Source: an uncultured bacterium (GTDB taxonomy: Bacteria; Acidobacteriota; Thermoanaerobaculia; Multivoradales; JAHZIX01). Taken from it: a DNA stretch of 64,000 nucleotides. Where the stretch lies: positions 192,001 to 256,000 of the forward strand of contig CBDUPA010000006.1 of assembly GCA_965368975.1 (NCBI GenBank), written 5' to 3'. The notes beneath the pieces are model-generated. The model was given only the letters and a program-made list of their open reading frames with translations. It searched no databases and had not been told where the DNA came from. Shown here piece after piece: positions 8,104 through 54,413 of this stretch (its first letter is position 1; each line of letters starts with the position of its first letter). The position numbers and the translations under genes were made by a program.

Positions 8104-8146
8104 CGCCCACCACGAGCGAGAGCCGCTCGGCGCGAGCGGTGCCGGC

Positions 8147-8395: not shown

Positions 8396-8448
8396 GCTCT
8401 CTCTCCGGTAATTCCAGGCTCCGATGATCTAGGTGAGGCTGCTCTGCC

Positions 8449-9381: not shown

Positions 9382-9419
9382 GGCACTGAATACGGTAGCG
9401 CTCGAAGAAAGGACAGTCA

Positions 9420-10115: not shown

Positions 10116-10334
10116 GCCGGCTGCAGGGAATACGCCTGAAGTTCACGGTGCGGAAACGAGCTCAAGCTGCTCGGCAGACGACGTGTGTCCAGGAACGCTC
10201 AGAAGAGACCTAGTCAGACTGGTGCAGTGAGGTTCGGAGACAGATTCGGCAATGGAATCCAGTGGGGACTGCTGAGACGTGGTTAGATCGAGCTGATTCG
10301 ACACTGAAGGTACCTGAAATCTTAGAAGAGGCTG

Positions 10335-10374
10335 GCACCCTTGATAGCACCCTTGATATCGCACCCTTGATATC
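10335..10374. repeat. Tandem repeat gcacccttgata(tc) x3
   Basis: Read directly from the sequence; lies just upstream of the likely CRTAC1 start. Confidence 0.8.
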
Positions 10375-10384
10375 TTCGGGGTTC

Positions 10385-14064: not shown

Positions 14065-14093
14065 CCACGTCCGGAAGAGGATTCGCCTCGAAG

Positions 14094-15116: not shown

Positions 15117-15202
15117 GGCGACAAAGTAGCATTGCACCAGCCCCGCCGGCAACAGGATTTCTTGCACACCCAGATCCCACGAGCCTGTACGCGGGTGCAC
15201 GA

Positions 15203-26162: not shown

Positions 26163-26182
26163 GGTTCTTTCTCCTTGTCCGA

Positions 26183-27067: not shown

Positions 27068-27264
27068 GTCCTACCTCCTTATCCTGGCACGATGCACCGA
27101 TCACGGGCTGCCCCGAATGGGCAACCGTTCCCGGTCCACTGTGAGCGGGATGTTGAACTCGCGGGTTCTCGCGAGTAGCTACCGTGCTTGAAGGGATGTG
27201 AAATTAAGGGGAAGTTCACGTTGAGGCTACCATGCAGCCGCGAAGTGCGCAAGTGAGTTCGGAC

Positions 27265-28461
27265 TCAGAACTCCCGCCCCTGCCGCAGCCCCCGGCGCTC
27301 CGCAGCCCGCACCATCCGCCGCTTGTGGGCGCTCCAGCCGTAGCCGGCGAACAGCCCCAAGACGCCGACGCAGAAGCCGACGAAGAGGGTAAAGGTAAAC
27401 CCGTCGACGCCTCCAGCCCCACTGCGGGTCACCGCACTGAGCCGCCGCCGTGCGCGCTCCTCGGCTGACGGGCCATCTTGCAGTTCTTCGCGGATCGTCC
27501 GTTCGCTGTCGTCACGGCGGTCGACGAAGGTGCGGTCTGGACGATCGAGACCGCCGTTGTTCCAGGCGGAAATGGGGAGCTTCTCCTGCAAAGCGGGGTC
27601 GTCGGCGCGAATCACCTTGACTGGACGCAGGCCGCGTTCGGGCCAGGGGTTGAAGCCGAGGGAGCCGCAGTCGACCCAGGCTTGACCGCAGCCGTCGGGA
27701 TTGCCGGTGCCGTCGACATGCAGCAAACGCGTATTGCTGGGACCTGGGATCCATGCGGATCCGTCCGGCGGCTGGAAAGACGCGAGGTCACCGGGAAAGC
27801 GGGTGACGGCGTTGCTCAGGTGGCCCTCCATGTCGCCAGGAGTCGAACTGAGCCAGGAGACGAACCAGGCTTCGTAGCCGAGACCTTGCAGCAGGGTCGT
27901 CAGCAGGACGGCGGCATCGTCGCAGTCGCCTTGTTCGTCGACCAGGAATTCGATGCCGAACTTGGGGTACTCGGTCCAGCCGGTGGTGGTGTCGAAACTG
28001 TAGTTGATGCCCTGCACCAGGCCGTGGACGAAGGCGACGCGCGAGGCTTGGGAGGTGACGCCGGCGGCCTCGAAGTGACGGGCGAGGGCGACGGTGAGCG
28101 GGCGCAGGTCGCTGGCAGTGACGTCGAGAACGCGGCGGATGGAGTCGTGGGGATCGTTGCGGCGCAGGCTGTAGGCGTCGACGCCGACGGCGAGCTCGGC
28201 CCAGGCGAGTTCGCGCTCGGTGCACGGAACGCGGTCGGTGGGGCAGAAGGGCCAGGCGCGGTAGATGCGGCCGGAGTCGGGTGCGGGCAAGTCGTTGCCA
28301 TGCGAGCGACCGTCGTCATGCAGTCGTACCCAGGGTAGAGCGTCCGCGGCGAGCAGTGGCTCGGTGACGCTCGGCAGGACGAGGTTCGCACCTAGGAGAA
28401 AGCAGGCGAGCGGCAGGGGATGGGTGCGCGGCCCGTGGCGAGTGACATGGCTGTGCGGCAT
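27265..28461 (-). CDS. Membrane-anchored transglutaminase-like (Cys-His-Asp) protein
   Basis: Signal-like N-terminus, FVHGLVQGINY, EFLVDEQGDCDDAAVL, GHL, HVDGT; C-terminal TM plus Arg-rich tail. Confidence 0.75.
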   Translation of the reverse strand: MPHSHVTRHGPRTHPLPLACFLLGANLVLPSVTEPLLAADALPWVRLHDDGRSHGNDLPAPDSGRIYRAWPFCPTDRVPCTERELAWAELAVGVDAYSLRRNDPHDSIRRVLDVTASDLRPLTVALARHFEAAGVTSQASRVAFVHGLVQGINYSFDTTTGWTEYPKFGIEFLVDEQGDCDDAAVLLTTLLQGLGYEAWFVSWLSSTPGDMEGHLSNAVTRFPGDLASFQPPDGSAWIPGPSNTRLLHVDGTGNPDGCGQAWVDCGSLGFNPWPERGLRPVKVIRADDPALQEKLPISAWNNGGLDRPDRTFVDRRDDSERTIREELQDGPSAEERARRRLSAVTRSGAGGVDGFTFTLFVGFCVGVLGLFAGYGWSAHKRRMVRAAERRGLRQGREF

Positions 28462-29618
28462 CAGAACTTCCTTCGTGCACGCTCGGCGCGCCGTGTCTGC
28501 TGGCGTGCCAGGCGTTGCTGTCGAGTGCGCCAGCTGCTCCAGCCGAGCAGGCCGAGCAACGCCAGGAGCACGGCCGAGATGACGTAGAGGGTGCCGTCTT
28601 CCTGCTGGCCTGGCAGGCACTCGAGGCCGAGGGCGCGCGCCTGGGCGCAGATGTCGGGCTGGGTGGAGGTGGGGCCGGCTTCGGTGTCGGTATCGGTGTC
28701 ACGGGACGGCCGTGGGGTGGTCGGCGTCCGCGGATCGGTTGGGGTCGTGGATGGCAGACTGCCGCCGGGTTGCCAACCGTCGGCGAGCATTTCGTCCCAG
28801 GTCCAGGTGGTGATCGGTTCCTCGAGCTCGCCGGGCCAGACGGCGCGCACCAGCGGGACCAGGTAGCCGCCGTCGACGTTGCGCGTCCAGTCGGCGCCGC
28901 TGCTTCCGCTGCTGCCGCCGGCATCTTCGCGCGACAGCCAGACGCCGAAGACTTCCGGTGTCGGTGCGTCTGAAGTCGTGGTCGAGCCGGTGCCGCCGGC
29001 TGGGTAGCGTGCCAGGTGGACGGGGATGCCCAGGGTCTGTAGGGCCTGCACAGCAGTGAAGGCGGTGGACAGGGTGTCCGCGTGGACGGCGTCGGCGAGC
29101 ACTTCCCAGCCTTGCCACAGCCGGGAGTAGCGGCTCGGGGGGCCGGCGCGGTGGGCCGCGACGGGGCGCAGCGTGGCGACCAGGCACGTAGCGGTGAACA
29201 GAGGGTCGTCCTCGGCTAGCAAGCCGCGCTGGCGTAGCGCCGCGACGAGCACGCGCAAGTGCGGTTCGTTGGCCGCGGCGACCTGGGCCGGCGTCTGTTC
29301 ACGGCCAGCCTGATCGAGCCAGGCGTCCGGGCCGTGCACCACCATCAGGTAGGGATCCTGCTTGGGTGGCAGGGTGCGCACCCACTGCCGGTGCCAGCGG
29401 CCCTTCTGGTCGAAATTACGGTTCTGGACGACGCCCGGTAGCAAGTCGATGGTCAGGTCTTGGGCGAAGGCGGGGAAGGCGACGAAGAGCATCGCCATCA
29501 AATGGAGAAGGATCCCCTTCTGTGTAGGGGCGGCCCCATGTGGCCGCCCTGCGGCGCAGCCGCATCCGGATCCAGAGGGCGGCCACATGGGGCCGCCCCT
29601 ACAACGGAGGGCGGACAT
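28461..29618 (-). CDS. Membrane-anchored secreted protein, probably a degenerate transglutaminase-like paralog
   Basis: Signal peptide ending AFA-Q; EVLADAVHADTLSTAF..ALQTLG aligns by eye to the neighbour's catalytic segment; Pro/Thr linker; C-terminal TM plus Arg-rich tail. Confidence 0.6.
   Translation of the reverse strand: MSALRCRGGPMWPPSGSGCGCAAGRPHGAAPTQKGILLHLMAMLFVAFPAFAQDLTIDLLPGVVQNRNFDQKGRWHRQWVRTLPPKQDPYLMVVHGPDAWLDQAGREQTPAQVAAANEPHLRVLVAALRQRGLLAEDDPLFTATCLVATLRPVAAHRAGPPSRYSRLWQGWEVLADAVHADTLSTAFTAVQALQTLGIPVHLARYPAGGTGSTTTSDAPTPEVFGVWLSREDAGGSSGSSGADWTRNVDGGYLVPLVRAVWPGELEEPITTWTWDEMLADGWQPGGSLPSTTPTDPRTPTTPRPSRDTDTDTEAGPTSTQPDICAQARALGLECLPGQQEDGTLYVISAVLLALLGLLGWSSWRTRQQRLARQQTRRAERARRKF
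29523..29603. repeat. GTAG-family REP doublet (REPIN-like), 28-bp perfect inverted arms
   Basis: tgtaggggcggccccatgtggccgccct (29523-29550) and its exact reverse complement (29576-29603), separated by a 25-bp spacer. Confidence 0.85.
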
Positions 29619-29627
29619 CACCACCCT

Positions 29628-32600
29628 CTAACCCAGCGGCGGCGGTTCGTCGTCCAGCAGGGCGACGATTTCCGCGACCTCTTCGGCGTGGTGCCATTGG
29701 TCGCCGAAGCTGCGGGTCCACACCTTGTGCTCGCTTGCCGGTGCGGCCTGGATGCGCGCGGCGACGTCGGCGGCGCTCAACTTGCCGCGACGTTCGCCGT
29801 CGCAGGCGTAGTGGTACAGCGTACCGGCGGTCAGCGGTGGTGGCTCGTCCTCGGCGCGTAGCGGCGGGGGGGCGTCGCTGTCGGCCACCGGTTCCTGCTC
29901 GGCGCCCTGCTCGGCGTCCTGCTGCGCCGCGAAGGCGTCCCAGCGGATGGCCAGGCGCGGGAAACGGACCTCGGGGTTGCCCTGCGCATCGCGGCCGCGC
30001 GGCACGACGCCGGCGGTCTGCAGCTTGCCGATCTCGGTCTCGACGGCACCCTGCAGGGTCCATTCTTCCAGCCGGTGGGTGTCTGGCACCTTGGCGGTGG
30101 TGGCGACCAGTTGGCTGGTGTCGCGGTAGGTGGGTTCGGTCCAGCTGTGCAGATCCTCGAGCAGGGCTTTGACCGCCAGCGCTGCCTCGGGCCCCAGGCT
30201 GGCCTGGCTGGTGACCTGGCGCCGCCATTCGCCACGCAGGTGGTCGCACACCAGATTCTGCATCGAACCGACGGCGGTGCCTTCGTCGCGGCCCAGGCCA
30301 GGGGCGACTTGCACCGGGAAGATGCAGTAGTAGTAGTAATCCGCCAGGGCCACGAGGTGGGCCCAGCCGCCGCGTTCCGTCTGCAGCAGCCGCTTGAGCG
30401 CCGCCTCGACCTCGGTGCGCAGCTGCTGCACCAGCACCGTGTCGCTCATCAGGCGGTCGATCACGCGGCCTTCGGGGCCGAGGTCACGCCACTGCACTTC
30501 GAACGGGCCAACCCGTCGACGCCACTGGTAGACCATGCGCTGGTCGTCGTCGGGGCGCAGGCGCACGCTGCACACCAGGCCGAGCATCAGTGCCTGGATG
30601 AACAGGCGCCAGGCGACCTGGAAGGTGGGCAGCTGCTGCGTGCTGTAGGGCAGGATGGGCTGGAATTGGTGGTAGTCCTGGTGGATGTGCAGCGGTGTGT
30701 CGCGCGCCACCAGGGAGTCGTAGTGCTTGCGCAGCTCGGAGACCTCGCTCAGGTAGTAGACCGGGAAGGCGTTGAGTTCGCTGTAGAAGATCAGCTCGCA
30801 CGGCTCGTAGGCCTGCACACGGCGCGGCTCGAAGGGGGCGTCGGCATACTGCTGCAGGAAGTCGACCAGCTCCTGGACCACTTCTTCCTCGTGCGGCTGG
30901 CCGGTGGTGGTGCAGCCGATGAAGGCATCGCCGTGCGGTTGGTGCAGGTTGACCAACTCGTCGGCCTGGTTCTTGCTGCCCCAGGGCAGGCCCTTCTCGT
31001 ATAGCTGCTCGAACAGGTCGCGCCGCTTGGGACGATCGTAGTACTTGCCGAGCACGGCGCACAGTGAGTGCCGTTCGATGAAGCCGTCGACGGCGTCTTC
31101 CGGATCCTCGACGAAGGCGGCGGTGCGCCCCTTGTCGCCGCGCAGGGCGTAGAAGGCTTGCGCCGCCAGCTCGTCGCGGAAGTCTTCGAACTCGGCGTTC
31201 AACTTGTCGCCGATACGTTGCAGCGTGTCGAGGCCCATGCGCCGCAGCGCGCGGTCGAGCACCAGCTGCAGGCGTTCGATCTTGGTCTCTCGCGCGCGTC
31301 CGAGGTAGGGCTCGAGCAGGTCGCCCATCTCGCCCGGTACGTCGATCTCGACGATCACCGATGACTCTTGGGGCTGGGCGTAGAACTCGGCCAGCCGCTG
31401 GTACTCGGACTCGAGCAGGAACATGCGCTCGGCGATGCGTTCGAGGTTGCCGAGCTGGTCGCGCAGGACGTCGCGGATGCCGTCGACGGCGCGCTTGCCC
31501 TCGCCGCAGATCAGTTCGTTGGCCTCGGCGCGCCAGTAGTCGTAGAAGGCTTCCGAGGCGCGCTGCACGGCGGCCTCGTGGGTGTCGACCGCGGAACCGA
31601 AGCCGCGCGAGGCGCGGTCGGCGTTCTTCAACCGCTTGTGCCAGTTCTGCAGCTCGATGTCGGCGCGTCCGCGCAACTTTTCCTGCTGCTGCTTGAAGTA
31701 GTCGCCGTAGAAGGCCTGGTCGGCGGGACGGTCGAGCAACTCGAGCAGGTCGCGCAGGATGGCCATGACACCTGAGATGCCGACCGCCGGACGGCGGCGG
31801 AAGTCCTCGATCACCTTGGGCAGCGCCGTGTGCACCTCGTCGATCAGTTCCTTGCGATTCTGCCGGATGCGGCGCACCCAGTCGCCCTCACTGCCCGGGG
31901 AGTTGGGGTCGCCCCACAGGCTGGCGACGCGCTTGAAGACGTCCTCGCCCAGCTCGACGGTGGCCTTGTCGGTGTACATGTTCTCGGCCAGGCCGTTGAT
32001 CTCTTCCTGGAAGCGGCGCAAGTGCTGGTAGACGTCGCTGACGTGGCCGCCGGCACCGCTCTGGCGCGCCAGACGGTCGCGGATCTGCCAGTGACGGCGA
32101 CGACCGGCGTCGGTCTCGCGGTCGCCCTGGAAGAAGCCGGATTCGAAGCAGAAGCGGTCGCGGTGGTGGGTGATCACGTCCTTGAGACCGCCGACGCGGC
32201 CCGGGTCCATCAGCCCCACCATCAGCCCCGCCAGGTCGTACTTGCAGCGGTTGAGCAGACGCCAGGACGGGAACACCAGCTTGCTCAGGCCGACGGTGGC
32301 AAAGGCGTTGCGCCACTCGTCGGTGTGCGTTTCCTGGGTGCTGCCGTCGGAGCGCTGCAGGCGGTAGGTGTAGGTGACGGCGCTGCGCAGGTATTGCTCG
32401 CGGTTGACGCGCACGCCCTGCACCCAGCCGGCCATCGGCCCGGCGCCAAAGTCGAGGAAGAGGATCTCCCCCAGCGTGCGGTAGCAGTCGTTGAGGTCGC
32501 CCAGGTACTGGCCGGAGGCGTTGGTGCCCGAAATCAGCACGTAGCGGTCGTACAGGCCGCGGACCTCCTGCGCCACCTCGTTGGGTTGCCAGCGGGCGAG

Positions 32601-33398
32601 GAAGGGGTGTGTCAGGTAGTGGTTCAGCTCCAGCAACGCGGCGCAGCCGTTGGCCGCCAGCTTGGGGTAGCTCTGCCCCTGTTCGACGTTCTTGAAGCCG
32701 CCGGGCAAGACCAGGAAGCCTTCGATCTTGGGCTTGGACGTCGAGCCGAGGGTGCGCCGCACCAGTGCCGCGACGTCGAGCACCATGCCCGAGCCGGTAC
32801 CGCCGGCCAGGCCCGCGACGATCACCACGCGCACCGGCGACGAGGTGTCGAGGCGGCCGGAGTCCAGGCGGTTGGAGGTCACCTTGCGGTGGGCGCGGTC
32901 GAGGCCACTGGCGATCAACTCGTGGTTGGTGAAGAAGGCGAGGCGCGACAGCGGCCGGATCTGGCCGGCGCCGGCTTCGATCTGGAAATCCTCGCTCGGC
33001 AGAGCGCGCTCGTCCCACCACTCACGGATCTGCGGATGGTGGATGAGGTTGGGGCCGACGTAGTTCTTGAACTCGATCTTGACGTCGACGCGTTCGTCTT
33101 TGTCGAAACTGAGCGCGCGGTCCAGCGGGCTGCGCCGCTCTTCTTCGGCCGAGACTTCTTTGGAACGCACGTCGGTGTCGATGGACAAGAAGGCGGTGCC
33201 GTCGAGCGCATCGACCGCGCCGTAGCGCTCCAGCAGCATGCGCCGCAGGTGCAGCAGGGCCTTGGCACCGGTGCCGCCGAGGCCGACGAAGATGGTGCGC
33301 GGGTAGATGCCCTTGTCTCGCTTCCGGGCCTCTTCTTCGAGCTTGCGGGAGTAGTCGTCGTCAACGAATTCACCGACGACTTGATACGGATTGGCCAC
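29628..33398 (-). CDS. Tubulin/FtsZ-like (Tubulin_2-type) large protein with helical region and C-terminal GYF-like (DUF4339) domain
   Basis: AGGAGG RBS; IFVGLGGTG, FLSIDTD, GAGQIRPLSRLAF, AGLAGGTGSG, AANGCAALLEL; C-terminal YHY..DGERRG..S......VW..SFGDQW..AEEV.EI. Confidence 0.85.
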   Translation of the reverse strand: MANPYQVVGEFVDDDYSRKLEEEARKRDKGIYPRTIFVGLGGTGAKALLHLRRMLLERYGAVDALDGTAFLSIDTDVRSKEVSAEEERRSPLDRALSFDKDERVDVKIEFKNYVGPNLIHHPQIREWWDERALPSEDFQIEAGAGQIRPLSRLAFFTNHELIASGLDRAHRKVTSNRLDSGRLDTSSPVRVVIVAGLAGGTGSGMVLDVAALVRRTLGSTSKPKIEGFLVLPGGFKNVEQGQSYPKLAANGCAALLELNHYLTHPFLARWQPNEVAQEVRGLYDRYVLISGTNASGQYLGDLNDCYRTLGEILFLDFGAGPMAGWVQGVRVNREQYLRSAVTYTYRLQRSDGSTQETHTDEWRNAFATVGLSKLVFPSWRLLNRCKYDLAGLMVGLMDPGRVGGLKDVITHHRDRFCFESGFFQGDRETDAGRRRHWQIRDRLARQSGAGGHVSDVYQHLRRFQEEINGLAENMYTDKATVELGEDVFKRVASLWGDPNSPGSEGDWVRRIRQNRKELIDEVHTALPKVIEDFRRRPAVGISGVMAILRDLLELLDRPADQAFYGDYFKQQQEKLRGRADIELQNWHKRLKNADRASRGFGSAVDTHEAAVQRASEAFYDYWRAEANELICGEGKRAVDGIRDVLRDQLGNLERIAERMFLLESEYQRLAEFYAQPQESSVIVEIDVPGEMGDLLEPYLGRARETKIERLQLVLDRALRRMGLDTLQRIGDKLNAEFEDFRDELAAQAFYALRGDKGRTAAFVEDPEDAVDGFIERHSLCAVLGKYYDRPKRRDLFEQLYEKGLPWGSKNQADELVNLHQPHGDAFIGCTTTGQPHEEEVVQELVDFLQQYADAPFEPRRVQAYEPCELIFYSELNAFPVYYLSEVSELRKHYDSLVARDTPLHIHQDYHQFQPILPYSTQQLPTFQVAWRLFIQALMLGLVCSVRLRPDDDQRMVYQWRRRVGPFEVQWRDLGPEGRVIDRLMSDTVLVQQLRTEVEAALKRLLQTERGGWAHLVALADYYYYCIFPVQVAPGLGRDEGTAVGSMQNLVCDHLRGEWRRQVTSQASLGPEAALAVKALLEDLHSWTEPTYRDTSQLVATTAKVPDTHRLEEWTLQGAVETEIGKLQTAGVVPRGRDAQGNPEVRFPRLAIRWDAFAAQQDAEQGAEQEPVADSDAPPPLRAEDEPPPLTAGTLYHYACDGERRGKLSAADVAARIQAAPASEHKVWTRSFGDQWHHAEEVAEIVALLDDEPPPLG

Positions 33399-33426
33399 GG
33401 TGTGGACCTCCTTGTGCGTTCAGGCT

Positions 33427-34008
33427 TCAGCTATCCCGGACGATGGCCAGAGTGTAGATCAGATGGATCAGCCAGGCGCCGCCGAGTACCGCCAACCCTA
33501 CCCAATACGAAGAATGCCAGCAGTCGGTCAACCAATGGGCCAGGCCGGCGGTGCCGAGGGCGGTGAGCACGACGGTCAGCGAGATGCCGAGGTGGCGACC
33601 GAGCATCGAGTTGCGGTCCTGGGCGATGAAGCGGCGCTCGAACACGCGCACCAGCAGGAAGAAGAGGAGCACGAGCAGGGTCAGGAAACCGACGCCGATC
33701 ATCACCTTCTCCTGCGTCGACGGCGGGCAGCACTCGCCGGCCGGGCAGATGCTGCTGCCGATCAGCTCGGCCAGGGACTCTTCCTCACCGCTGCCGGGTG
33801 GGGTGATGTCTTCCGTGGTCACGTCTTCACTGGTCAAGTCTTCACTGGTGACCGTGGTCGGTGGTGGTGCCGGCTCCGGCCCGGTGGCGGGTTCCTGGGC
33901 CGAGAGGGGACTGATCGTCAGCAAGAGGCTGATCGTCAGCAAGAGGCTGGTCATCAGCAAGAGGGGGAGCAGGCCGGAGACGTGGGTTCGCGAGTGCGCT
34001 GAGATCAT
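33427..34008 (-). CDS. Small membrane protein (signal peptide, acidic Pro/Thr linker, Cys motif, 3 TM)
   Basis: AGGAAAGG RBS; ICPAGECCPP followed by three hydrophobic helices. Confidence 0.7.
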   Translation of the reverse strand: MISAHSRTHVSGLLPLLLMTSLLLTISLLLTISPLSAQEPATGPEPAPPPTTVTSEDLTSEDVTTEDITPPGSGEEESLAELIGSSICPAGECCPPSTQEKVMIGVGFLTLLVLLFFLLVRVFERRFIAQDRNSMLGRHLGISLTVVLTALGTAGLAHWLTDCWHSSYWVGLAVLGGAWLIHLIYTLAIVRDS

Positions 34009-34031
34009 GGGCTAACCTTTCCTAACATGGA

Positions 34032-36107
34032 TTACCAATCGCTGTTGCCGCGACCGCTGATGCCGCGACCCTTCCAGCCGCGGCGCACGTCGAGCCGGTA
34101 TTCGAAGCCGTCGCCATCGCCGTGACCGGTGGCCAGAATCCAGCTGCCGCCGTCCTTGCGCAGCCGGTGACCGGGACGGGCCTTGAACCGAGCGCGCGGC
34201 CCCCAGCCGCGGTGCAGACGGGCACGTACGGCGCCGTCGATGTCGAGGTCACGGCGGCTGAGGCGCGGCAAGCTGAGGCGTGCGTGCTCGACGCCGTCCA
34301 CCCATACGGTGTACTGCAAGCGCTGGAAACGCAAGACGGCGAGCAGCACCAGTAGCAATAGACTACCGCCGCCGAGCAGCACCAGCAGCCCGAACAGCTG
34401 GCCGTTGTTGGACAGCACCGCGGCGGCCGGATACTCGGCCCACAGGTACCCTTGCTGGCGACCGCGGAAGAGAGCCGGCAGCTGGGCAGTGCCGTAGATG
34501 CCCTGCAGCCGCGCAGGGTCGATCGCCAGGCTGGTGCGGATGTCGCGCATCTCGGCCACCATGCGGCCGTCGAGCAGGATCTGCGGCGTCAGGGCGACGT
34601 CCAGCAGGTGCTGGCGCCCGCCACCCTTGAGACTACTTGCGACGTCGATCGGCGGCAGGCGGAACAGCACCTCGACCGTCGCGCTGCCCAGTGGCGGCAG
34701 CGGGCCGACCTCGATTGGTGCATCGGCACCGCCGCGCGTAGTCGGGCGGCCTTCGCCCTTGACCAGCCACTGCAGTGGCTCCATCTGCCCGGCGCACACG
34801 GCCGACGCCCAGGGCAGGCGCTGGCGCTCGAACGGCTTGCGCGGCAGCATCACCTGGTTGTGCAGGCTCAGGTGTGCGCTGTCGACGCTCTGGTGGCGCA
34901 GCGTGTTGCGCACCCGGATCTCGGCCAGGCACAGCAGCGCGTCGCCGTACTCGGCGCTACGGTCACAGTTGAGCGCCTGGCCGCCGTGCAGCTGGAAGTC
35001 GAGACTCAGCACTTCGGTGTCGATCGGTTTGAGGCGTAGAGGCACACCGGCGACATCCGGCAAGGTCGCGCTCGGATCCGCGGTAGCGGCGTGCCCTGCG
35101 ACCTCGGCGGCGACGTCGCGCAGCGCAGCGTTCCACAACAAGCCGTCGGCGGTTGGGCCGCTTCCTCCCGTGTTGGCTCCTGCGGGCTCGGTACCGCCGA
35201 GGCGGTGGGAGGCGGCGCTGTCCGGCCGCTCGAAGGCTGAGACATACATGCCGTAGACGAACAGTGACGTGCCGCACATCCAGCTGCAGGTCTGCGCTTC
35301 GAGCACCGGATAGGTGGCGATCATCTGGATGCGCGGATCGACCTTGAGCGTGTTGTAGAAGGCGAGATTGCGCTGCGCGTCTTCGGCACTGACGCCCGCA
35401 CCGCCGGTGTCGACGATGTTATCGGTCACCAGCCAGACGATCGCCTCGCCGATCTCGTCCGTGGCCACCGCGGTCACCGTCTCGATCAGCGCCTGCCGGC
35501 TCTCCGTGGTCAAGTAAGCGGTGCCGTCGACCTGCCTCGGGTGTCCCGGGATCTGCGCCAGCCAGTCGGCGATTTGCGCCGCCGAGGCGGTGGAGACGGG
35601 GCGCTCGAAGGTCAGCTGCTCGGCGCCGGTGAAGCGCTCTACGCTGCCGTCGCCGCCCAGGCGCCAGGCGTGGGCGTTGAACAGCAGGATCTCGAGTTGG
35701 ATGTCCGTGCCGACCGGGCTGGCGGCGTCGAGCCAGCGGCCGAGCAGCTGGTGGAAACGTGGCAGCTGGTAGTAGAAGGTGCGCTCGGCACACACGGCGC
35801 AGCCGGCGTCCGGCTGGCGGTTGTAGCCGGGGTACATGCTGCCCGAGTAGTCGAGCATCAGGATCATCTTGGTGGGTGCTGGCGCGTCGCCCGCTGCCCG
35901 CCGCCGCCGCAGCACGCCGCCGGCGCTCGGATCCTCGACGGCACGGAAGCTCTGGCGGCGGATCGTACCGTCGGACAGCATGGCCTCGCTCTCGTCCGGG
36001 CACACGCGCACACTGGCCTCTGTGACGTGTACCGCAGCCGTGCTGAGCACGACCCAGGCCAACGCGATCCCAAAGCCGCGGAAGCCGCGGATGGTCTCAG
36101 AATTCAT
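34032..36107 (-). CDS. Membrane-anchored vWA-like domain protein
   Basis: GGAGG RBS before ATG 36107; signal peptide; MLDYSGSM MIDAS-like motif, WLVTDNI; C-terminal TM plus basic cytoplasmic tail. Confidence 0.7.
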   Translation of the reverse strand: MNSETIRGFRGFGIALAWVVLSTAAVHVTEASVRVCPDESEAMLSDGTIRRQSFRAVEDPSAGGVLRRRRAAGDAPAPTKMILMLDYSGSMYPGYNRQPDAGCAVCAERTFYYQLPRFHQLLGRWLDAASPVGTDIQLEILLFNAHAWRLGGDGSVERFTGAEQLTFERPVSTASAAQIADWLAQIPGHPRQVDGTAYLTTESRQALIETVTAVATDEIGEAIVWLVTDNIVDTGGAGVSAEDAQRNLAFYNTLKVDPRIQMIATYPVLEAQTCSWMCGTSLFVYGMYVSAFERPDSAASHRLGGTEPAGANTGGSGPTADGLLWNAALRDVAAEVAGHAATADPSATLPDVAGVPLRLKPIDTEVLSLDFQLHGGQALNCDRSAEYGDALLCLAEIRVRNTLRHQSVDSAHLSLHNQVMLPRKPFERQRLPWASAVCAGQMEPLQWLVKGEGRPTTRGGADAPIEVGPLPPLGSATVEVLFRLPPIDVASSLKGGGRQHLLDVALTPQILLDGRMVAEMRDIRTSLAIDPARLQGIYGTAQLPALFRGRQQGYLWAEYPAAAVLSNNGQLFGLLVLLGGGSLLLLVLLAVLRFQRLQYTVWVDGVEHARLSLPRLSRRDLDIDGAVRARLHRGWGPRARFKARPGHRLRKDGGSWILATGHGDGDGFEYRLDVRRGWKGRGISGRGNSDW

Positions 36108-38097
36108 CGTGCCTCCGGTCCGCCTGCCGCCGCCGCAAGGGGAGTAGTTCCAGCTGGTAGGAGGTGCCGAGCCCGTCGCGCTCGGTGCTCTCCCAGGCGT
36201 GGCCCCCGACGCTGCGCACCGTGAAGCCGGAAGCGCCGGTGACGCGCGGCCGGCCGCCGAGGCCCAGCTTGGCGCGGGCGATCGAGCGGCCGTCGGTCTG
36301 CAGGTCGCTCCAGCGCCAGCGTACCAGCCGCACGCGGCCGCGCTCACTGCCATCGATGTGCAGCTGGCGGTAGACCGGGCGCAGCCACCAGGTGATGGCG
36401 AGGAAGAGCAGCACGGCCAGCAGCAGGAGCAGCAGCAACAGCAGCGACGCCGTCTGCGTCGGGTTGTGGACGCCCATCTGCAGGCAGATGCTGGTCGCCA
36501 GCTCGTCCGTGCTCGGGTTGCGGAAGATCGCCGGCATCGCCTCGACGCCGTACACCGAGCCGAGCTGGGCGTCCTCGATCACCATGGCGGTTTCGAGGTC
36601 GTAGATGTCGACGTGCATGGCGCCGAACATGGCGAAGTACTCGTGCTGCGCGTTCTCCCAATAGTCGGCCAGCGTGTGACGCTCGGTGGTCACCGGGCCG
36701 ACGTCGAGGACGATCGGCAGCGTGCGTCGTTCGCCCGGTGCCAGCGGTTCCTCCAGCAGCTTTTCGGCACGTACACTGCCGGCGCACAGGGGCACCGCGG
36801 TGTGCAGGCGCCGGACCTGCTGGCCGGGTAGCTGGCCGTAGGCGTCGGTGCGGCTGTTGTGCAGGACCAGGCGCAGCGACTCGACGGTGCGGTGGGGCAG
36901 CAGGTTCTCGATCTCCAGGTCGGCCCGGCACTGGCGCGGCTGGCCGACGCGCGCCGGCGGGCAGCGCACCTCGCTGGCGAAGGCCAGGCGCACCACATCC
37001 ATGTACGCGGGCTTGAGCTTGAACGGCTCGCCGGGTGATGGAGACTGTGGATCGGCGAAGGTCTCGAAGATCGCTTGGTGGGCCGATGTGCCGAGGCGGG
37101 CGCCCGGATTCTGCGGCCCGGTGAGCTGCTGGTAGGTGCGTTCGTCGAGCCGCTCGCGACTCGAGTAGTAGAGGCCGTAGACCATCAACGTCTGGTCGCA
37201 TAGCCACGCGTCACCACCGGCCGGAGCCCGGTGCAGTGGCCAGGCGTAGACCACTTGCCAGCGTGGATCGGATTCGAGGATGCGGTAGAAGCGGCGGTTG
37301 AGTTCCGGCTCGCGGCCGTCGCCGGTCTCGATGATGTTGTCGGTCACCACCCAGGCGACGCCGTCGCGGGCCTCGTAGCTCTCGAACAGCACGCGCAGCG
37401 CTGGAAGTACGTGGTCGAGACGCGTTTCGCGCGCGTCGCCGAAGCCGGCGCGGAACGGATCTGCGGGCAAGGTGCCGTGCAACTCGGGTGCGGTCAGCCG
37501 CTTCAGCGCCGCTGCGGCGCCGCGCGGTGCGATCGGCAGGCCACCGTCGAAGGCATTGGTGGCTGGATCGAAGCTGTGAGGCCCGGAGGCGTCGTCCAGC
37601 GCGGTACCATCCAGCGCGATGACCTGGCGGTTGAACACCAACGTGTGGACCGGGTCGCGTTCGCCGACACCACTCAGCAGCCCGTCGCGCAGCAGGGAGG
37701 CAAAGCCTGGATGGCTCCACAAGTACTGGCGCTGGCCCGAGTCTCCCGCGTCTGTGCAGCGGCGGAACATGCTGCCCGAGTAGTCCAGCACCAGCGCGTG
37801 CAGCAGTGGTCGTCCGTCGCTGTCCGTGGTCTCAGGTCCCAAAGGCAGGGGCGCACCGTCGAGCAGACCCCCGGCCGTGCGGTCGGCGGCGTCGCGTTCC
37901 GGGACCAGTACGGCGGCCTGGTTGGCGCGGCATTCGCGCACCTTTTCGGCGCCGAAGACCGACTGCGGCGAGCAGGCGTCGCCAGCACCGCGCGGCTCGA
38001 ACTGTCCGCAGCCGGTGACGCTGAGCCCGAGGCACAGGGTGCCCAGCCCCAGGAATCCCAGCCTCAGGAGGCCGACTAGTCGCCGGTGGGCAATCAC
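36097..38097 (-). CDS. vWA-like domain lipoprotein with C-terminal TM (paralog of 34032..36107)
   Basis: GTG 38097 overlaps the upstream TGA; lipobox-like LSVTGC; VLDYSGSM, WVVTDNI; poly-Leu TM. Confidence 0.7.
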   Translation of the reverse strand: MIAHRRLVGLLRLGFLGLGTLCLGLSVTGCGQFEPRGAGDACSPQSVFGAEKVRECRANQAAVLVPERDAADRTAGGLLDGAPLPLGPETTDSDGRPLLHALVLDYSGSMFRRCTDAGDSGQRQYLWSHPGFASLLRDGLLSGVGERDPVHTLVFNRQVIALDGTALDDASGPHSFDPATNAFDGGLPIAPRGAAAALKRLTAPELHGTLPADPFRAGFGDARETRLDHVLPALRVLFESYEARDGVAWVVTDNIIETGDGREPELNRRFYRILESDPRWQVVYAWPLHRAPAGGDAWLCDQTLMVYGLYYSSRERLDERTYQQLTGPQNPGARLGTSAHQAIFETFADPQSPSPGEPFKLKPAYMDVVRLAFASEVRCPPARVGQPRQCRADLEIENLLPHRTVESLRLVLHNSRTDAYGQLPGQQVRRLHTAVPLCAGSVRAEKLLEEPLAPGERRTLPIVLDVGPVTTERHTLADYWENAQHEYFAMFGAMHVDIYDLETAMVIEDAQLGSVYGVEAMPAIFRNPSTDELATSICLQMGVHNPTQTASLLLLLLLLLAVLLFLAITWWLRPVYRQLHIDGSERGRVRLVRWRWSDLQTDGRSIARAKLGLGGRPRVTGASGFTVRSVGGHAWESTERDGLGTSYQLELLPLRRRQADRRHDEF

Positions 38098-39806
38098 GAG
38101 ACCGTCTCCAGCTGCAAGCGGTAGCAGTGCACGCTCATCCCCTGGCCCAGGAAGACGTCGCGGCCGAGCAGGGCCAGGCCTTGGGGGGCTTCGTAGGCGC
38201 CGGGGACACGAATTCGTGACGGCGTGCCGAGATCGGCCCAGCCCAGGCCCTGGGCGCCCAGGCGCAGGCCATCCTGGAAGCGGGCCAGGACACCCGCCGA
38301 GCACACCAGCGGTGCTTCGCGCGCGCCCTGCAACCGTTGCTCCGGACCGCGCAACGGTTGGAGCACCGAGGCGGCGCTGCTGTAGCGCGGGAAGATCGCC
38401 ACCATGCGGTCGGTCGACACCGCCAGCAGATGGCCACCGATGTTCTGCTGGTGGCGCGAGCCGTGGCCGATGGCGAAACCCATCAGGTCGCCGAGTTCGC
38501 CCAGGTCCCGCCGTTCCCAGCTCCACGGCTCGCCGCGCACGATGTCCGCCAGCGTCGCACGCAGCATCTCGACCCGACCGCCGGTCTCACTCGAGACCCA
38601 CACTTCCGGCCGCTCGCGCGGGTCCGGCACCACCTGCAGGGTCGGCAGGCTCGAGGGCTCGAGGTCGAGCGGCGACTCGGGCGTGTAGCGGGTCGGCACC
38701 AGCTCGCGCGGCTCACTGTTTGGCTGCAGCAGTCCGTCTGGCTGCAGCAGTCCGTCTGGCTGCAGCAGTCCGTCTAGCTGCAGCAGTGACGTCAGTACCT
38801 CGCGCTCCAGCATCGACACGGTACCGCGACCGTCGACCCACAGTAGCCGACCGGTGGCGGCGTCGAAGGTGGGCGGGCGCATGACGCCGGGCGCCGGGCA
38901 GCGTGCCAGCAGGGTGCCGGCGGGGTTGAATAGCAGAATCTCTCCGTCCGCGAAGGCCTGTCGTTCCAGGTCCGGGCGGCCCTGCAGCAGTGCGAACAGC
39001 ACGCCGTCCGCGCTTCCAGCTGGCTGCAGATCCAGCCCCAGCGGGGGTCCCAGAAACTGGCAGCCGGTATCCGGCGGGTGCGCGCGGGTAGGATGTTCGC
39101 TCGCCATGCCGCGGAAGTAGAGGTAGGGCGCGAGGTCGCGGAATACCGCCTGGTGCGCGGCGGCGACCAGCATGCGCGAGCCGCGAAGGACCGGCGGGTG
39201 CAGCACGGCGTGGGCGGGGTCGGTAGGGTCAGTGGAGCGGTCCGGCCACTCCAGGGGGCGCTGTAGCCGTGGCGTGCCGTCCTGGGCGTCGAAGATGCCG
39301 AGCCAGCCGCGCGCGGTGGTGGCGACCACCTGGCCGCGCACCACGTTGACGCCCACCACGTGATCCTCGGAGGTTCCGACGTCGTCGCCGGCTGCCAGCA
39401 GGCTGCGCTGCCAGCCCTCGCGCAGCACGAAGCGTTGATCGGCGCGCGGCGGGCCAAAGATGTTGCCCAGCGGATCGCGCGGGCTGTGCGCACGCCCGGC
39501 ACTGCCGCCGGCCTCGTTCCAATCGAGCAATGAATCGCCGCGCAGGGCGCTGCCGGTGCGAGTCGAGAAGGCACTCCAGGGACGTCGATAGACCTCGGCG
39601 GCCGCGGTGCTCTCCGGCGCTGGCTGGTCGTTCTGCTGCTGAACGGCCTCGTAAGGCCGCGCACAGGCGTCGCACCAACCCAGGGCCGGCAGGAAATGCA
39701 GCGGCTGCACGGGTTGTGCGCAGTCCGGGTAAGGGCAGCGCTCCGGCGGTCGGAAGCGCCGGTTGTCGGGGTCCCACTCGGGGCCGCTGAGGTGTGGACT
39801 CTTCAT
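38094..39806 (-). CDS. Zn-finger (CPxxxC...CxxC) plus probable beta-propeller protein
   Basis: ATGA overlap; CPYPDC..CDAC; blade-like segments (GQVVATTARGWLGIFDAQDG, GRLLWVDGRG). Confidence 0.55.
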   Translation of the reverse strand: MKSPHLSGPEWDPDNRRFRPPERCPYPDCAQPVQPLHFLPALGWCDACARPYEAVQQQNDQPAPESTAAAEVYRRPWSAFSTRTGSALRGDSLLDWNEAGGSAGRAHSPRDPLGNIFGPPRADQRFVLREGWQRSLLAAGDDVGTSEDHVVGVNVVRGQVVATTARGWLGIFDAQDGTPRLQRPLEWPDRSTDPTDPAHAVLHPPVLRGSRMLVAAAHQAVFRDLAPYLYFRGMASEHPTRAHPPDTGCQFLGPPLGLDLQPAGSADGVLFALLQGRPDLERQAFADGEILLFNPAGTLLARCPAPGVMRPPTFDAATGRLLWVDGRGTVSMLEREVLTSLLQLDGLLQPDGLLQPDGLLQPNSEPRELVPTRYTPESPLDLEPSSLPTLQVVPDPRERPEVWVSSETGGRVEMLRATLADIVRGEPWSWERRDLGELGDLMGFAIGHGSRHQQNIGGHLLAVSTDRMVAIFPRYSSAASVLQPLRGPEQRLQGAREAPLVCSAGVLARFQDGLRLGAQGLGWADLGTPSRIRVPGAYEAPQGLALLGRDVFLGQGMSVHCYRLQLETVS

Positions 39807-40597
39807 CGGCCGACGATCACCTGCGCGCGTTGGGGTTCTTGGTCGGCACGGGCATAGCGACGTCCGACCACCTTGAGGGCGACGACCAGACCGGCCGCTC
39901 CGCCGATATCCCGGCCGCCGAGGGCGTGGTGGCGGTCGGGGTCGAAACGGGTCTCGAACGGCACGACCGGATCCAAGCGGTACCAGCCCTGGCGCTGGCA
40001 CAGCTGGCCGAAGTCGTCGTAGAGCCATCCTCGCAGCCGCTTCACCAGGTCGTCGCCGTGGCCCTCGTGGGCTTGCTGCGCCGCGACGGAAAGGTGGCGC
40101 GCCAGCTGGTTGAGCAGTTCCGGCAGGTCACTGTCCGCCCACGCCGCGAGTCGATCAGCTTCGATCGCCTCCACCAGGCGCTGCAGGCGCGTCAGCATCG
40201 GCGCGCCAAAGTCCTGGTGGAGGCGACGTCGCGCTTCGTCGTCGGCGCACAGTGTTGCCAGCTCGGGTGCTTGCTGGTGTAGTCGCAGCAGCAGCAGGCC
40301 GATCTCGCCCTGCGGTAGGCGTTCCAGATCGTGACGAATGGCCTCGTAGTCGACGCCGCTCTGCGTCTCGGCCGCGGGTTCGGTGGGTTTGGTGCCAGGG
40401 TGGCTGCCGGGATGGTTGTCGGTGGACTGGTTGCCGTTGCCGTCGAGAGAAGCGCTGGTCCTGTCGTCGCGCAGGGCTTGCAGGAGCTGGCGGTCTTCCT
40501 CCTGCCGGCGTTCCAGCCGCCGCAGCCTCCAGCCGAGGAGGCCATAGAGGGCGAGCGCCAGGACGGCGAGCAGGGCGGCGAGCAGGGAGGGCATCAT
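39803..40597 (-). CDS. Membrane-anchored GrpE-like nucleotide exchange factor
   Basis: N-terminal TM and short coiled coil; C-terminal TRFDPDRHHA..G.VV....VG.....RAQVIV resembles the GrpE head; ATGA overlap with the Hsp70-like gene. Confidence 0.65.
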   Translation of the reverse strand: MMPSLLAALLAVLALALYGLLGWRLRRLERRQEEDRQLLQALRDDRTSASLDGNGNQSTDNHPGSHPGTKPTEPAAETQSGVDYEAIRHDLERLPQGEIGLLLLRLHQQAPELATLCADDEARRRLHQDFGAPMLTRLQRLVEAIEADRLAAWADSDLPELLNQLARHLSVAAQQAHEGHGDDLVKRLRGWLYDDFGQLCQRQGWYRLDPVVPFETRFDPDRHHALGGRDIGGAAGLVVALKVVGRRYARADQEPQRAQVIVGR

Positions 40598-45341: not shown

Positions 45342-45456
45342 GAAGCGGACTCCTGGCTCGTGGACGCGAGAACTCGAGAAGGCTGCGATGGGGTGGCAAG
45401 CATGGAAAACAGGGTCTCAGTATATCTCGCTGTTCCGGCTGGTAGGCTCTCGTGTC

Positions 45457-54319: not shown

Positions 54320-54413
54320 GACGGACCTCCTTGCCTCATTAGACACGACTGGAGCATCCGAGGAAACCGCCCCGTTCCGTCATGAGCCTATTGCTTGGTC
54401 GAGAACAGCCTTG

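Follow-up and report, generated by a model that had tools for sequence, protein, structure and literature searches.

Closest among the described systems is FtsZl1 (FtsZ-like 1), which Makarova and Koonin set out as a family (2010; PMC2875224) and which corresponds to Pfam Tubulin_2 (PF13809). In that description the signature loop of the family is GGGTG(S/T)G, the region T6-H7 was not alignable, sequence analysis could not detect a complete two-domain tubulin fold and the authors were sceptical of canonical filaments; a vWA-domain protein was found in the majority of FtsZl1 operons but not in all, and other partners were kinases, P-loop GTPases and OmpA proteins. The term GYF has 0 occurrences in the text of that paper (PMC2875224). 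No bench characterisation of the FtsZl1 family was found in the literature searched.

Canonical FtsZ has, past a disordered linker, a conserved C-terminal peptide that docks FtsA and ZipA, and eukaryotic GYF domains (CD2BP2, GIGYF2 and Smy2; PF02213) bind proline-rich ligands with a consensus of the PPG-hydrophobic type. The bacterial GYF domain of GltJ from Myxococcus xanthus (PDB 7Z3C) is N-terminal in a membrane protein, situated beside a zinc ribbon, and binds a proline-rich sequence on another protein, AglZ, with micromolar affinity (PMC11135422). Given that the GltJ domain did not bind the CD2 peptide, a canonical eukaryotic GYF ligand, and uses a different surface, motif specificity can not be transferred. 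Balaji and Aravind (2007) proposed that flanking proline-rich stretches are ligands of bacterial GYF domains and linked such proteins to transmembrane (TM) proteins, and the idea of a self-flanking proline ligand is already published as a general suggestion; a tubulin/FtsZ architecture is not mentioned in the main text (PMC2034487).

In the window, which is the whole 64,000-nucleotide stretch of DNA that was analysed, the open reading frame at positions 29628..33398 encodes a protein of 1256 aa from a GTG start (all features of the operon described below lie on the reverse (-) strand of the window). An AAGGAGG is located within 16 bases 5' of the start and the GC3 of the frame is 0.90; this is a real gene, and its product is a giant relative of tubulin and FtsZ. 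The protein matched PF13809 with E 4.8e-58 and 197.6 bits (cut-off 27) over residues 36-391 (32226..33293), covering profile positions 1-352 of 356, and the same match was obtained in a genome-wide search. This places the protein, which is presumably cytoplasmic, in the FtsZl1 branch of the tubulin/FtsZ superfamily. As in described FtsZl1 proteins of ~1000-1300 aa, an N-terminal FtsZ-like GTPase-type domain with a GGGTG(S/T)G-type loop is followed by a long stretch of helices and, after it, another domain at the C-terminus, a normal FtsZ is present alongside, and the operon is rich in membrane proteins and probably in vWA proteins. Since the canonical FtsZ is encoded separately, elsewhere in the same genome, the giant protein is not the division protein. 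In contrast to the FtsZl1 proteins described in 2010, a GYF_2/PPPL tail is appended here, and the place of the kinases, P-loop GTPases and OmpA proteins is taken by a small protein with 3 TM segments, an ATPase of Zn-ribbon/Hsp70-like type and a protein that is transglutaminase-like.

For comparison, 44 relatives (P0003-P0046) with 32-63% identity across the aligned part were collected; a few of these sequences are partial, and 43 sequences were aligned as orthologues for the conservation counts. The two nucleotide-binding loops that a sequence-only reading had placed in the first ~220 aa were found at residues 39-44 (GLGGTG, T1-type; 33267..33284) and 198-204 (AGGTGSG, T4 signature loop; 32787..32807). 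G41, G42 and G44 of the former and G199, G200, T201, G202 and G204 of the latter were invariant in the 43 aligned orthologues, as were the glycines of a T3-like GAGQ loop. A local hhalign comparison paired T1, T3, T4 and H5 with their FtsZ counterparts (GLGGTG with GVGGGG and AGGTGSG with GGGTGTG) at E 5.8e-4 and a probability of only 29%, the alignment being unreliable past H5. Residues 1-1195 were modelled with AlphaFold2 at a mean pLDDT of 84.8 and a pTM of 0.76. This model gave 348 chains at E<=0.001 in Foldseek (best E 1.6e-5), with FtsZ, CetZ, tubulin and TubZ among the matches, and VIA aligned 278-354 residues of the model to CetZ, TubZ, tubulin and FtsZ at ~4 A with Z 20-23.6. Together with the Pfam result, this bore out the tubulin-like N-domain.

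In these VIA matches, which rest on the predicted model only, the aligned residues span almost the entire FtsZ, CetZ and tubulin chains, the FtsZ chains stopping at model residues 880-881 and CetZ/TubZ at 898-901. The predicted structure therefore suggests that the two-domain tubulin fold, which was not detected by the sequence analysis of 2010, is complete, and that the second domain may sit beyond a helical insertion of ~400-480 aa. Based on the ends of the structural matches, the alpha/beta segment at residues 823-898 (30705..30932) is the candidate for this second, activation-type domain. In the superfamily, an acidic catalytic residue of the T7 loop completes the active site of the neighbouring subunit. 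No conserved Asp/Glu of T7 type was seen in residues 803-822, ahead of the candidate S7 strand and second domain. Given this result and the unalignable T6-H7 region of FtsZl1, it is doubtful that the protein would carry out self-activated GTP hydrolysis or form protofilaments.

The long, largely helical region noted earlier was also recovered, with helices from residue 456 to 802 (30993..32033) by DSSP on the AlphaFold2 model and pLDDT values there mostly of 85-95. It is followed by a C-terminal body domain of mixed alpha/beta structure (residues 922-1164; 29907..30635; DSSP on the same model) and by an acidic, proline-containing linker that is predicted to be disordered (residues 1159-1192; 29823..29924; pLDDT under 50).

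The GYF_2-like module at the C-terminus (residues 1193-1248; 29655..29822) was examined by a Pfam scan of the tail, AlphaFold2, Foldseek, VIA and a family HMM. With the full-length protein as query there was no match to PF14237 (GYF_2) at E<=0.01, and the isolated last 90 aa matched profile positions 1-49 of 50 but, at 19.6 bits (E 8e-4), fell short of the cut-off of 25.8 bits, i.e. the expected PF14237 assignment failed for this protein itself. A precomputed PF14237 match was present at the homologous position in 18 of the 44 relatives, and the family HMM found at least one GYF module in 42 of the 43 orthologues. The module was modelled at pLDDT 93-94 with the order strand-strand-helix-strand-helix. 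The best Foldseek row was the GYF domain of GltJ (7z3c) but with E 2.2, and in VIA three solved GYF domains were among the six best rows (7z3c with Z 3.6, 1wh2 with Z 3.6 and 7rup with Z 3.4, at ranks 4-6 of 10), the top three being TOC-TIC subunits and not named GYF domains; the values for the module (Z 3.4-4.7) are in a range where chance arrangements arise. W1235, H1224 and V1226 were conserved in at least 90% of the orthologues. W1235 could be matched, by eye only, to the Trp of GYF strand 3, which is exposed and a conserved feature of GYF domains according to Balaji and Aravind (PMC2034487). The matches in relatives, the confident model and the VIA rows speak for a GYF-like module as had been proposed.

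Three PPPL motifs are present in the protein, all within the last 80 residues: residues 1177-1180 (DAPPPL; 29859..29870), 1186-1189 (DEPPPL; 29832..29843) and 1252-1255 at the very end (DDEPPPLG-COOH; 29634..29645). From the composition 0.014 PPPL would be expected. When the full sequence was shuffled 20000 times, and the last 100 aa likewise 20000 times, no shuffled sequence reached three. In the terminal motif P1254 was invariant and P1252 and P1253 were conserved at 90% or more (43 aligned orthologues), and in closer orthologues a PPPL recurs at positions -72 to -79, counted from the C-terminus, just ahead of the final GYF module. All 82 PPPL motifs of the 43 orthologues were located within the last 260 aa and none in the bodies of ~1000 aa; 35/43 had PPPL within the last 12 aa, and the context was fixed and acidic (DEPPPLD repeats). 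A PPP motif was found downstream of the last GYF module in 41 of the 42 orthologues with GYF, where it can not be a linker given that no folded module lies beyond, and the lone orthologue without GYF had no PPP motif in its tail; these counts come from kindred sequences and the loss of GYF is a single event. Among 130 FtsZl1 cluster representatives of at least 900 aa, PPP was present in the last 120 aa of 28/35 with GYF and 6/95 without (Fisher's exact test, p = 2.7e-16, with kin that are not independent). In the more distant representatives the GYF tails are likewise flanked by proline motifs, and those without GYF end in a folded domain. Proline-rich stretches often accompany appended domains as linkers, and part of the association is therefore trivial. 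The protein's own PPPL motifs, put forward earlier as candidate ligands, thus proved to be conserved and confined to the tail.

With a GYF module and conserved PPPL motifs in one tail, the protein probably holds on either to other copies of itself or to a partner, below a set of membrane proteins. The full reading that we propose, for which we see roughly even chances, is that the FtsZl1 protein would be a nucleotide-regulated scaffold under a membrane complex, with the GYF module gripping PPPL of the same protein family. The chain would start with an N-domain of GTP-binding type and continue through a long arm of helices and an alpha/beta body to a disordered acidic linker and a tail, in which (D/E)PPPL motifs stand on either side of one GYF_2 adaptor module, the final motif being at the extreme C-terminus. 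It would be produced together with the adjacent 3-TM protein G and, here, also with the vWA-like proteins E and F, the anchored exported proteins H and I and the cytoplasmic Zn-ribbon proteins, one of which has an Hsp70-like ATPase domain. The GTPase body could then act in a GTP-dependent manner while attached to the membrane complex, and binding of PPPL by GYF might occur in trans, cross-linking copies into a higher-order assembly, or in cis as a latch that is freed upon activation. The number of GYF modules per chain ranges from one to four and that of PPP motifs from one to several, so assembly through these contacts would be multivalent.

As in GltJ, this would be a bacterial GYF_2-type module without the G-Y-F residues that is cytoplasmic and tied to a membrane machine, the structural match being weak (Z 3.6, 18% identity). 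Here the module is C-terminal on a tubulin-like protein with its candidate ligand on the same chain, and the Zn ribbons belong to other products of the operon, B and D. Compared with the proline-rich stretches of Balaji and Aravind, the motif is more specific, namely a PPPL at the terminus with acidic residues beside it. The small alpha/beta fold class is shared with eukaryotic GYF domains (1wh2 and 7rup above), which bind ligands of another type than PPPL, and Pfam places the module in GYF_2 rather than GYF. The tubulin-superfamily body, the disordered linker and the short, conserved peptide at the end, by which the protein could be tethered to partners, recall FtsZ, but here the tail contains a folded adaptor module and the peptide is of PPPL type.

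The tubulin-like gene is part of an operon of ten genes, which also encodes two membrane proteins of vWA-like type, a transglutaminase-like protein and an ATPase of Zn-ribbon/Hsp70-like type, and the starts of genes B to I overlap or abut the preceding stops. Gene A (43827..45341; a weakly conserved ORF of 504 aa with uncertain start) is probably first in the operon because the next gene upstream, a glycosyltransferase at 45166-46680, is on the other strand. Gene B (40594..43830; 1078 aa) has a zinc ribbon in its N-terminal part and, in its C-terminal part, a nucleotide-binding domain of Hsp70/DnaK-like type (HSP70 E 1.6e-13). Gene C (39803..40597), whose ATG overlaps the stop of B, encodes an N-terminal TM segment and a helical cytoplasmic part; its identification as GrpE was not supported. 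Gene D (38094..39806), starting in the stop of C, has a conserved N-terminal Cys4 zinc-ribbon-like motif. Genes E (36097..38097) and F (34032..36107) are paralogues. The F protein is bitopic: its signal-like segment is followed by an invariant Cys, and it has a single TM and a cytoplasmic tail of ~100 aa. The vWA assignment of E and F is a lead only: D-x-S-G-S-M is invariant in both and the Atlas gave VWA_2 clusters at only 0.86-0.89, there was no vWA match against Pfam and PDB profiles, and in hhalign the vWA protein of the same genome was aligned over 16 columns (probability 2.9%). A second FtsZl1 locus of the same genome has a vWA gene upstream (Pfam near threshold). Gene G (33427..34008) encodes a small 3-TM membrane protein of 193 aa with a signal-like segment, a CCPP motif, a hydrophobic C-terminal half and a conserved basic, cytoplasmic-looking loop (ER.FI...GRH); by tblastn it is immediately upstream of the tubulin-like gene in 18 loci, and it has this place in nearly all related loci reaching that far. 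Downstream follow H (28461..29624), whose exported domain is anchored by a TM segment at the C-terminus, and I (27265..28461), exported, similarly anchored and transglutaminase-like by a sub-threshold match. The operon is flanked by polysaccharide-synthesis genes and alpha-2-macroglobulin.

These neighbours raise the alternative, which we consider unlikely, that each of the two tail elements has its own partner: the acidic PPPL peptide at the terminus would dock onto a different protein, much as the C-terminal peptide of FtsZ does with FtsA and ZipA, for example onto the cytoplasmic loop of G, the cytoplasmic tails of E and F or the Hsp70-like B, and GYF would bind a proline-rich region elsewhere, e.g. 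in gene A. The invariable neighbour G with its conserved basic loop and the conserved cytoplasmic tails of E and F are compatible with this, as is gene A, which is 12% proline. The PLPPPPP stretch earlier noted in the first operon gene does exist at about residue 359 of gene A, but it is not a conserved motif, given that one of four gene A orthologues has neither PPP nor PPxPP and the other three have differing stretches. A second class of loci (L008-L010) is without genes A and B-F, which were likewise not found in L006, L013 and L014, yet GYF and PPPL are kept, and GYF and PPP were gained or lost jointly in the FtsZl1 sequences examined. The stretch in gene A is therefore a weak candidate for contacts with an operon partner, and its suggested role as the GYF ligand was not upheld.

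It seems quite improbable that the proline motifs do no more than provide stiff, extended spacers and a disordered end and that GYF recognises a non-proline target through its open beta-sheet face. Such an open-face mode has been proposed for GYF domains (PMC2034487) and GltJ employs a non-canonical surface (PMC11135422). The tail end was placed without confidence in the AlphaFold2 model (pLDDT 43-67), and proline-rich linkers are common beside small appended domains. Against this, no spacer is needed past the last folded domain where 41/42 orthologues have PPP, and the exact PPPL in the final 12 residues of 35/43, the fixed acidic context and the bodies free of PPPL in all 43 favour the gripping of PPPL by GYF.

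Of 30 related genomes searched, 1 contained a true orthologue (60% identity) and four others had only paralogues with 27-35% identity; orthologues occur in Acidobacteriota, Myxococcota and 'Pseudomonadota' MAGs, with locus contents varying around a core of G and the tubulin-like gene. A function in conflict/defence or surface-sensing rather than in the cytoskeleton or membrane remodelling, in which the tubulin-like NTPase would serve as a switch and the part of sensors or effectors would fall to the exported vWA-like and transglutaminase-like proteins, would agree with this patchy distribution and variable gene content and is compatible with the GYF-PPPL mechanism, but is quite improbable given that 0/10 operon proteins matched PADLOC models at E<=0.01 and that the neighbours scanned included no mobile-element genes, the flanks being those of polysaccharide synthesis and alpha-2-macroglobulin.

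The tubulin-like protein was encoded by a single long ORF (29628-33398, minus strand, 1256 aa) that began with GTG and had the sequence AAGGAGG inside the 16 bases 5' of this start codon. The GC3 of this ORF was 0.90 in a region with a GC content of 67-71%, which fits the expectation for a real gene. The tubulin-like N-terminal domain proposed in the sequence-only reading was confirmed, with residues 36-391 matching the Pfam family Tubulin_2 (PF13809; E 4.8e-58, 197.6 bits against a cut-off of 27) and the nucleotide loops GLGGTG and AGGTGSG located at residues 39-44 and 198-204, respectively. The classical Pfam Tubulin model gave only 19.6 bits. In the accessible text of Santana-Molina et al. 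(PMC9871819) the Tubulin_2 "FtsZ-like" group is equated with the FtsZ-like proteins of Makarova and Koonin, whose 2010 paper (PMC2875224, text as accessible) describes FtsZl1 as coexisting with a normal FtsZ and its operons as containing vWA proteins, kinases, P-loop GTPases, OmpA proteins and many membrane proteins. The source genome also contained a canonical FtsZ, on a different contig, and a second FtsZl1 locus (L031, G000:C12:116000-134000; ORFs 5179-7902, 7943-11818 and 11815-15870, plus strand) encoding in order a vWA protein (VWA_2, E 1.4e-5), directly downstream of it a 1291-aa Tubulin_2 protein without GYF, and an unassigned 1351-aa protein. This second locus was closely preceded by lanthipeptide dehydratase genes and followed by a DEAD-type helicase. 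In the searchable part of the literature no bench study of FtsZl1 and no report of its function, structure or assembly mode was found, the post-2016 matches being FtsZ mutant names or passing mentions. The tubulin-like protein is a member of a known, uncharacterised family, and the underlying ideas are already in print; new relative to the family are the GYF/PPPL tail, a fixed small membrane partner, an Hsp70-like context and possibly a split tubulin fold.

A word-based search returned 91 proteins, 44 of which (P0003-P0046, from Acidobacteriota, Myxococcota and 'Pseudomonadota' metagenome bins) were relatives, a few of them partial sequences, aligned across most of the length with 32-63% identity to the tubulin-like protein. 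Invariant columns in A1, the alignment of 43 orthologues, were found in the T1-type loop (G41, G42 and G44), the T3-type GAGQ (G143, G145 and Q146) and the T4 signature (G199, G200, T201, G202 and G204). The loops were matched by local hhalign to GVGGGG, GLGAG and GGGTGTG in 13 FtsZ sequences from related genomes (13 of 14 loci, one being dropped since it had no ORF with the signature), together with the T5/H5 region, at low confidence (E 5.8e-4, probability 29%) and unreliably past H5. Given that the nucleotide loops are present, GTP binding by the tubulin-like protein appears plausible. An exhaustive search with residues 1-450 identified 4152 cluster representatives at E<=0.001, 58 of them at E<=1e-30. 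FtsZl1 is thus a sizeable branch within the tubulin superfamily, and the group of the tubulin-like gene forms one small clade of it. A true orthologue (60% identity over the whole length) was present in one of 30 related genomes, and four others had only paralogues with 27-35% identity; the distribution of the gene is patchy.

The C-terminal GYF domain suggested from the sequence stood as to its identity, by way of profile evidence from the relatives, and fell short in the direct Pfam scan. No match to GYF_2 (PF14237) was obtained at E<=0.01 with the whole protein, and the last 90 residues alone gave E 8e-4 over profile positions 1-49 of 50, with 19.6 bits against a cut-off of 25.8. A precomputed PF14237 match was present in 18/44 relatives and was aligned in A1 to residues 1193-1248, and an HMM derived from this column block detected at least one module in 42 of the 43 sequences (one in 11, two in 29, three in one and four in one). 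AlphaFold2 (residues 1076-1256, 12 rows) predicted the module with a pLDDT of 93-94 and the order strand-strand-helix-strand-helix, the preceding linker being below 50. When the module was compared with the PDB by Foldseek, the top row was the GltJ GYF domain (7z3c) at E 2.2 and no row reached 0.001. VIA-align gave 10 chains with Z>=2, the top three of which were TOC-TIC subunits (Z 4.7, 4.0 and 3.9), and the GYF entries were 7z3c (Z 3.6, 71 residues aligned), the Arabidopsis GYF 1wh2 (Z 3.6) and the GIGYF2 GYF 7rup (Z 3.4); such values of 3.4-4.7 do not on their own exclude chance. Sequence searches of the PDB returned chance rows only for the tail alone (E 0.077 or worse) and one irrelevant row for the family profile A1 (E 0.032). 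Because the fold scores combine with the profile evidence from the relatives, the module is taken to be a divergent bacterial GYF_2 domain.

The three PPPL motifs of the sequence-only reading were recovered at residues 1177, 1186 and 1252 (DAPPPL, DEPPPL and the terminal DDEPPPLG). The number of PPPL expected from composition was 0.014, and three were reached in 0/20000 shuffles of the whole protein and in 0/20000 shuffles of the last 100 residues. All 82 PPPL motifs of the 43 orthologues fell in the C-terminal 260 residues, the bodies of ~1000 residues having none; PPPL occurred inside the last 12 residues in 35/43 and PPP inside the last 20 in 39/43, with P1254 invariant in A1 and P1252 and P1253 conserved at >=90%. 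The motif had an acidic context (DEPPPLDDEPPPLDDDEPPPL in one clade, PPPD variants in others). Among the 42 GYF-bearing orthologues 41 had PPP after the last module, the exception being P0044 with IPPD, and the sole orthologue without GYF (P0024) had a tail without PPP. A wider FtsZl1 set was examined with an iterated local HMM (the 130 representatives of >=900 aa among the 150 best of the 4152 matches, 20 shorter ones being dropped), and GYF-like modules were found in 35/130. PPP was present in the last 120 residues of 28/35 proteins with a module vs 6/95 without (Fisher p 2.7e-16) and PPPL in 10/35 vs 1/95 (Fisher p 6e-6), p-values that are overstated because the sequences are related and those without GYF end in a folded domain. 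PPPL flanked the GYF module on both sides in P0101, P0118, P0221 and P0206, whose N-domains are 31-37% identical. Judged from these sequences, GYF tails recur within FtsZl1 and the GYF/PPPL pattern extends past the orthologue clade.

The tubulin-like gene was one of ten minus-strand ORFs that extended from 45341 down to 27265 and whose stops and starts overlapped or abutted. The first, gene A (43827-45341), contained the PLPPPPP stretch reported for it, and was proline-rich and weakly conserved. Gene B (40594-43830, 1078 aa) encoded an N-terminal C-x2-C...C-x2-C zinc ribbon in 4/4 orthologues and a C-terminal half matching Hsp70 (E 1.6e-13), with DnaK nucleotide-binding-domain matches at residues ~644-933. 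Gene C (39803-40597) encoded an N-terminal TM segment and a helical part; its identification as GrpE, suggested by eye from the sequence, was dropped, given no Pfam GrpE at E<=10, PDB phmmer matches only at E>1 and a single Atlas cluster (0.80) in which 16% of members carried GrpE. The product of gene D (38094-39806) had an N-terminal Cys4 zinc-ribbon-like motif conserved in 4/4 orthologues, and this 644-aa ORF also contained a short in-frame tandem repeat (DGLLQP x3, residues ~417-436). Gene G (33427-34008) encoded a small membrane protein, gene H (28461-29624) an exported, C-terminally anchored protein and gene I (27265-28461) a C-terminally anchored transglutaminase-like protein (E 6e-4). 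NCBIfam families gave 0 matches for 7 operon proteins, and a scan of 26900-46000 yielded 0 promoter-like and 7 terminator-like sites, with no excess over shuffles.

The paralogues E (36097-38097) and F (34032-36107) each encoded a protein with a signal-like segment, a single TM segment, a cytoplasmic tail of ~100 aa and two invariant features, a Cys and the motif D-x-S-G-S-M, and homologues also occurred in the related loci L003, L004, L005, L012 and L017. The Cys was located just past the signal-like hydrophobic segment in a lipobox-like consensus, LAAGC. We take D-x-S-G-S-M to be MIDAS-like (pattern DxSxS), and E and F are read as probable vWA receptors of divergent sequence whose C-terminus is a conserved peg, the vWA assignment itself being a lead only; a PDB profile search gave no relevant match for vWA. 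The possibility that E and F are motif-less copies of the tubulin-like fold was rejected (hhalign of A1 against A4, probability 0.2%).

By tblastn against the related loci, G was found immediately 5' of the tubulin-like gene in 18 loci, and this constant pairing with a small membrane protein suggests the site of action of such proteins. Genes B-F occurred in one locus class (L004, L005, L007, L012, L017 and in part L003), and homologues of H and I were found in L007-L010, L013 and L015 (I only in L015). In a second locus class (L008-L010) the pair of G and the tubulin-like gene was preceded by an ATE_C-type aminoacyl-transferase-like gene and followed by homologues of H and I, a TerB-like protein, a Na/Ca exchanger and an M48 peptidase.

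Conservation and loss of GYF and PPPL go together, both elements are multivalent, and neither depends on the variable operon partners; on these grounds the most likely target of the GYF module is the PPPL motifs of its own protein family. Such a contact could occur in trans, cross-linking copies of the tubulin-like protein, or in cis, acting as a latch; a complex prediction with two copies of residues 1165-1256 (own alignment) scored 0.00 against a mark of 0.42, was run without controls and is not evidence either way. Of the earlier idea of contacts between GYF and proline-rich sequences, the self-ligand is reasonable in view of the co-conservation and co-loss, and an operon partner as ligand is weak, gene A being weakly conserved. 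As an alternative, the module and the terminal peptide may have separate partners, the peptide docking for instance on G or on the tails of E and F; these tails are basic and end in D-x-W or D-x-F in 8/8 sequences printed, and G is the constant neighbour. The whole cluster might instead have a defence or sensing role, for which PADLOC gave 0 families for the 10 operon proteins. In a further alternative the proline motifs would be mere spacers; a motif with no folded domain after it cannot serve as a linker.

AlphaFold2 modelling of residues 1-1195 with a 43-row alignment (mean pLDDT 84.8, pTM 0.76) predicted an alpha/beta domain to ~440, near-continuous helices at 456-802, a beta-alpha-beta-beta-alpha unit at 823-898, a mixed domain to 1164 and disorder beyond. 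Foldseek found 348 PDB chains at E<=0.001, the matches listed all being FtsZ, CetZ, tubulin or TubZ (best row E 1.6e-5; 351-388 alignment columns). VIA-align on these candidates gave Z 20-23.6 with 278-354 residues aligned at ~4 A, and since the alignments span almost the whole target chains, both tubulin domains appear to be represented in the model. The alignments ended at model residues 880-881 for FtsZ, 898-901 for CetZ and TubZ and 917-921 for tubulins, all past the helical region. We infer from the model that the helical arm and the beta-rich part from ~340 may form an insertion of ~400-480 residues between the nucleotide-binding and the second domain, and do not state this more firmly because VIA-align gives only the first and last aligned residues and because the short Foldseek alignments also fit a contiguous match to ~32-420. 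The second domain would be at 823-898 in the split fold and at 340-440 in a contiguous one. Local hhalign with the 13 FtsZ sequences matched the N-domain only, and a search for the FtsZ C-domain in residues 800-920 gave E 0.13 or worse. No conserved acidic residue able to act as the T7 catalytic residue was seen in 803-822, and hydrolysis via an inter-subunit site and polymerisation are candidate properties only. If the second domain does follow a large helical insertion, this would explain why it was missed by the sequence methods of 2010, and the question of FtsZl1 polymerisation would be reopened.

The best-supported picture would be a cytoplasmic nucleotide-binding FtsZl1 scaffold attached to membrane-spanning and exported proteins, a role proposed for the family by Makarova and Koonin (PMC2875224, text as accessible). 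The filament of the sequence-only reading is a weak proposition. An extended version, to which we assign a low probability, is that GYF and the acidic PPPL peptides at the terminus act together as an intrinsic, multivalent 'hook-and-loop', by which a split-fold GTPase with a helical arm would be cross-linked tail to tail, instead of or besides forming head-to-tail protofilaments. The product would be a lattice or condensate controlled by nucleotide and situated beneath a complex of vWA-type transmembrane receptors. If true, this would represent a bacterial outside-in platform with a logic comparable to that of focal adhesions. The combination, in one tail, of a peptide-binding module and its probable ligand offers a simple handle on FtsZl1 association.

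There is precedent for such binding in the GYF domain of GltJ, which, according to the main text of that report, binds a proline-rich sequence of AglZ via a beta-sheet with micromolar affinity and does not bind the eukaryotic CD2 peptide (PMC11135422). In the same text the share of bacterial GYF proteins with a neighbouring Zn ribbon is given as ~44%; the ribbons are here on the separate proteins B and D of the same operon. Bacterial GYF proteins fused or adjacent to TM proteins are described in the main text of PMC2034487. Tubulin or FtsZ is not mentioned in the main texts of these two papers, nor GYF in the accessible text of the 2010 FtsZl1 paper (PMC2875224), and the supplements of all three may list the fusion.

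The flanks of the operon contained polysaccharide-synthesis genes, an alpha-2-macroglobulin gene and QueG, and no mobile-element genes were seen in them within the window. Downstream of the operon, a 289-aa ORF (25317-26186, minus strand) had a signal-like N-terminus and ~100 aa of Cys/Gly/Ser/Ala repeats (GSACxGS-type), and gave no Pfam match below E 1. Two large overlapping ORFs followed on the same strand (19864-25295), listed at 1193 and 912 aa with unrefined starts and carrying DUF4350, ABC_transp_aux and GIFT-type domains. The bacterial alpha-2-macroglobulin (48044-54346, minus strand; 2100 aa) had MG2, A2M and bMG10 domains and contained eight consecutive prolines near residue 1286.
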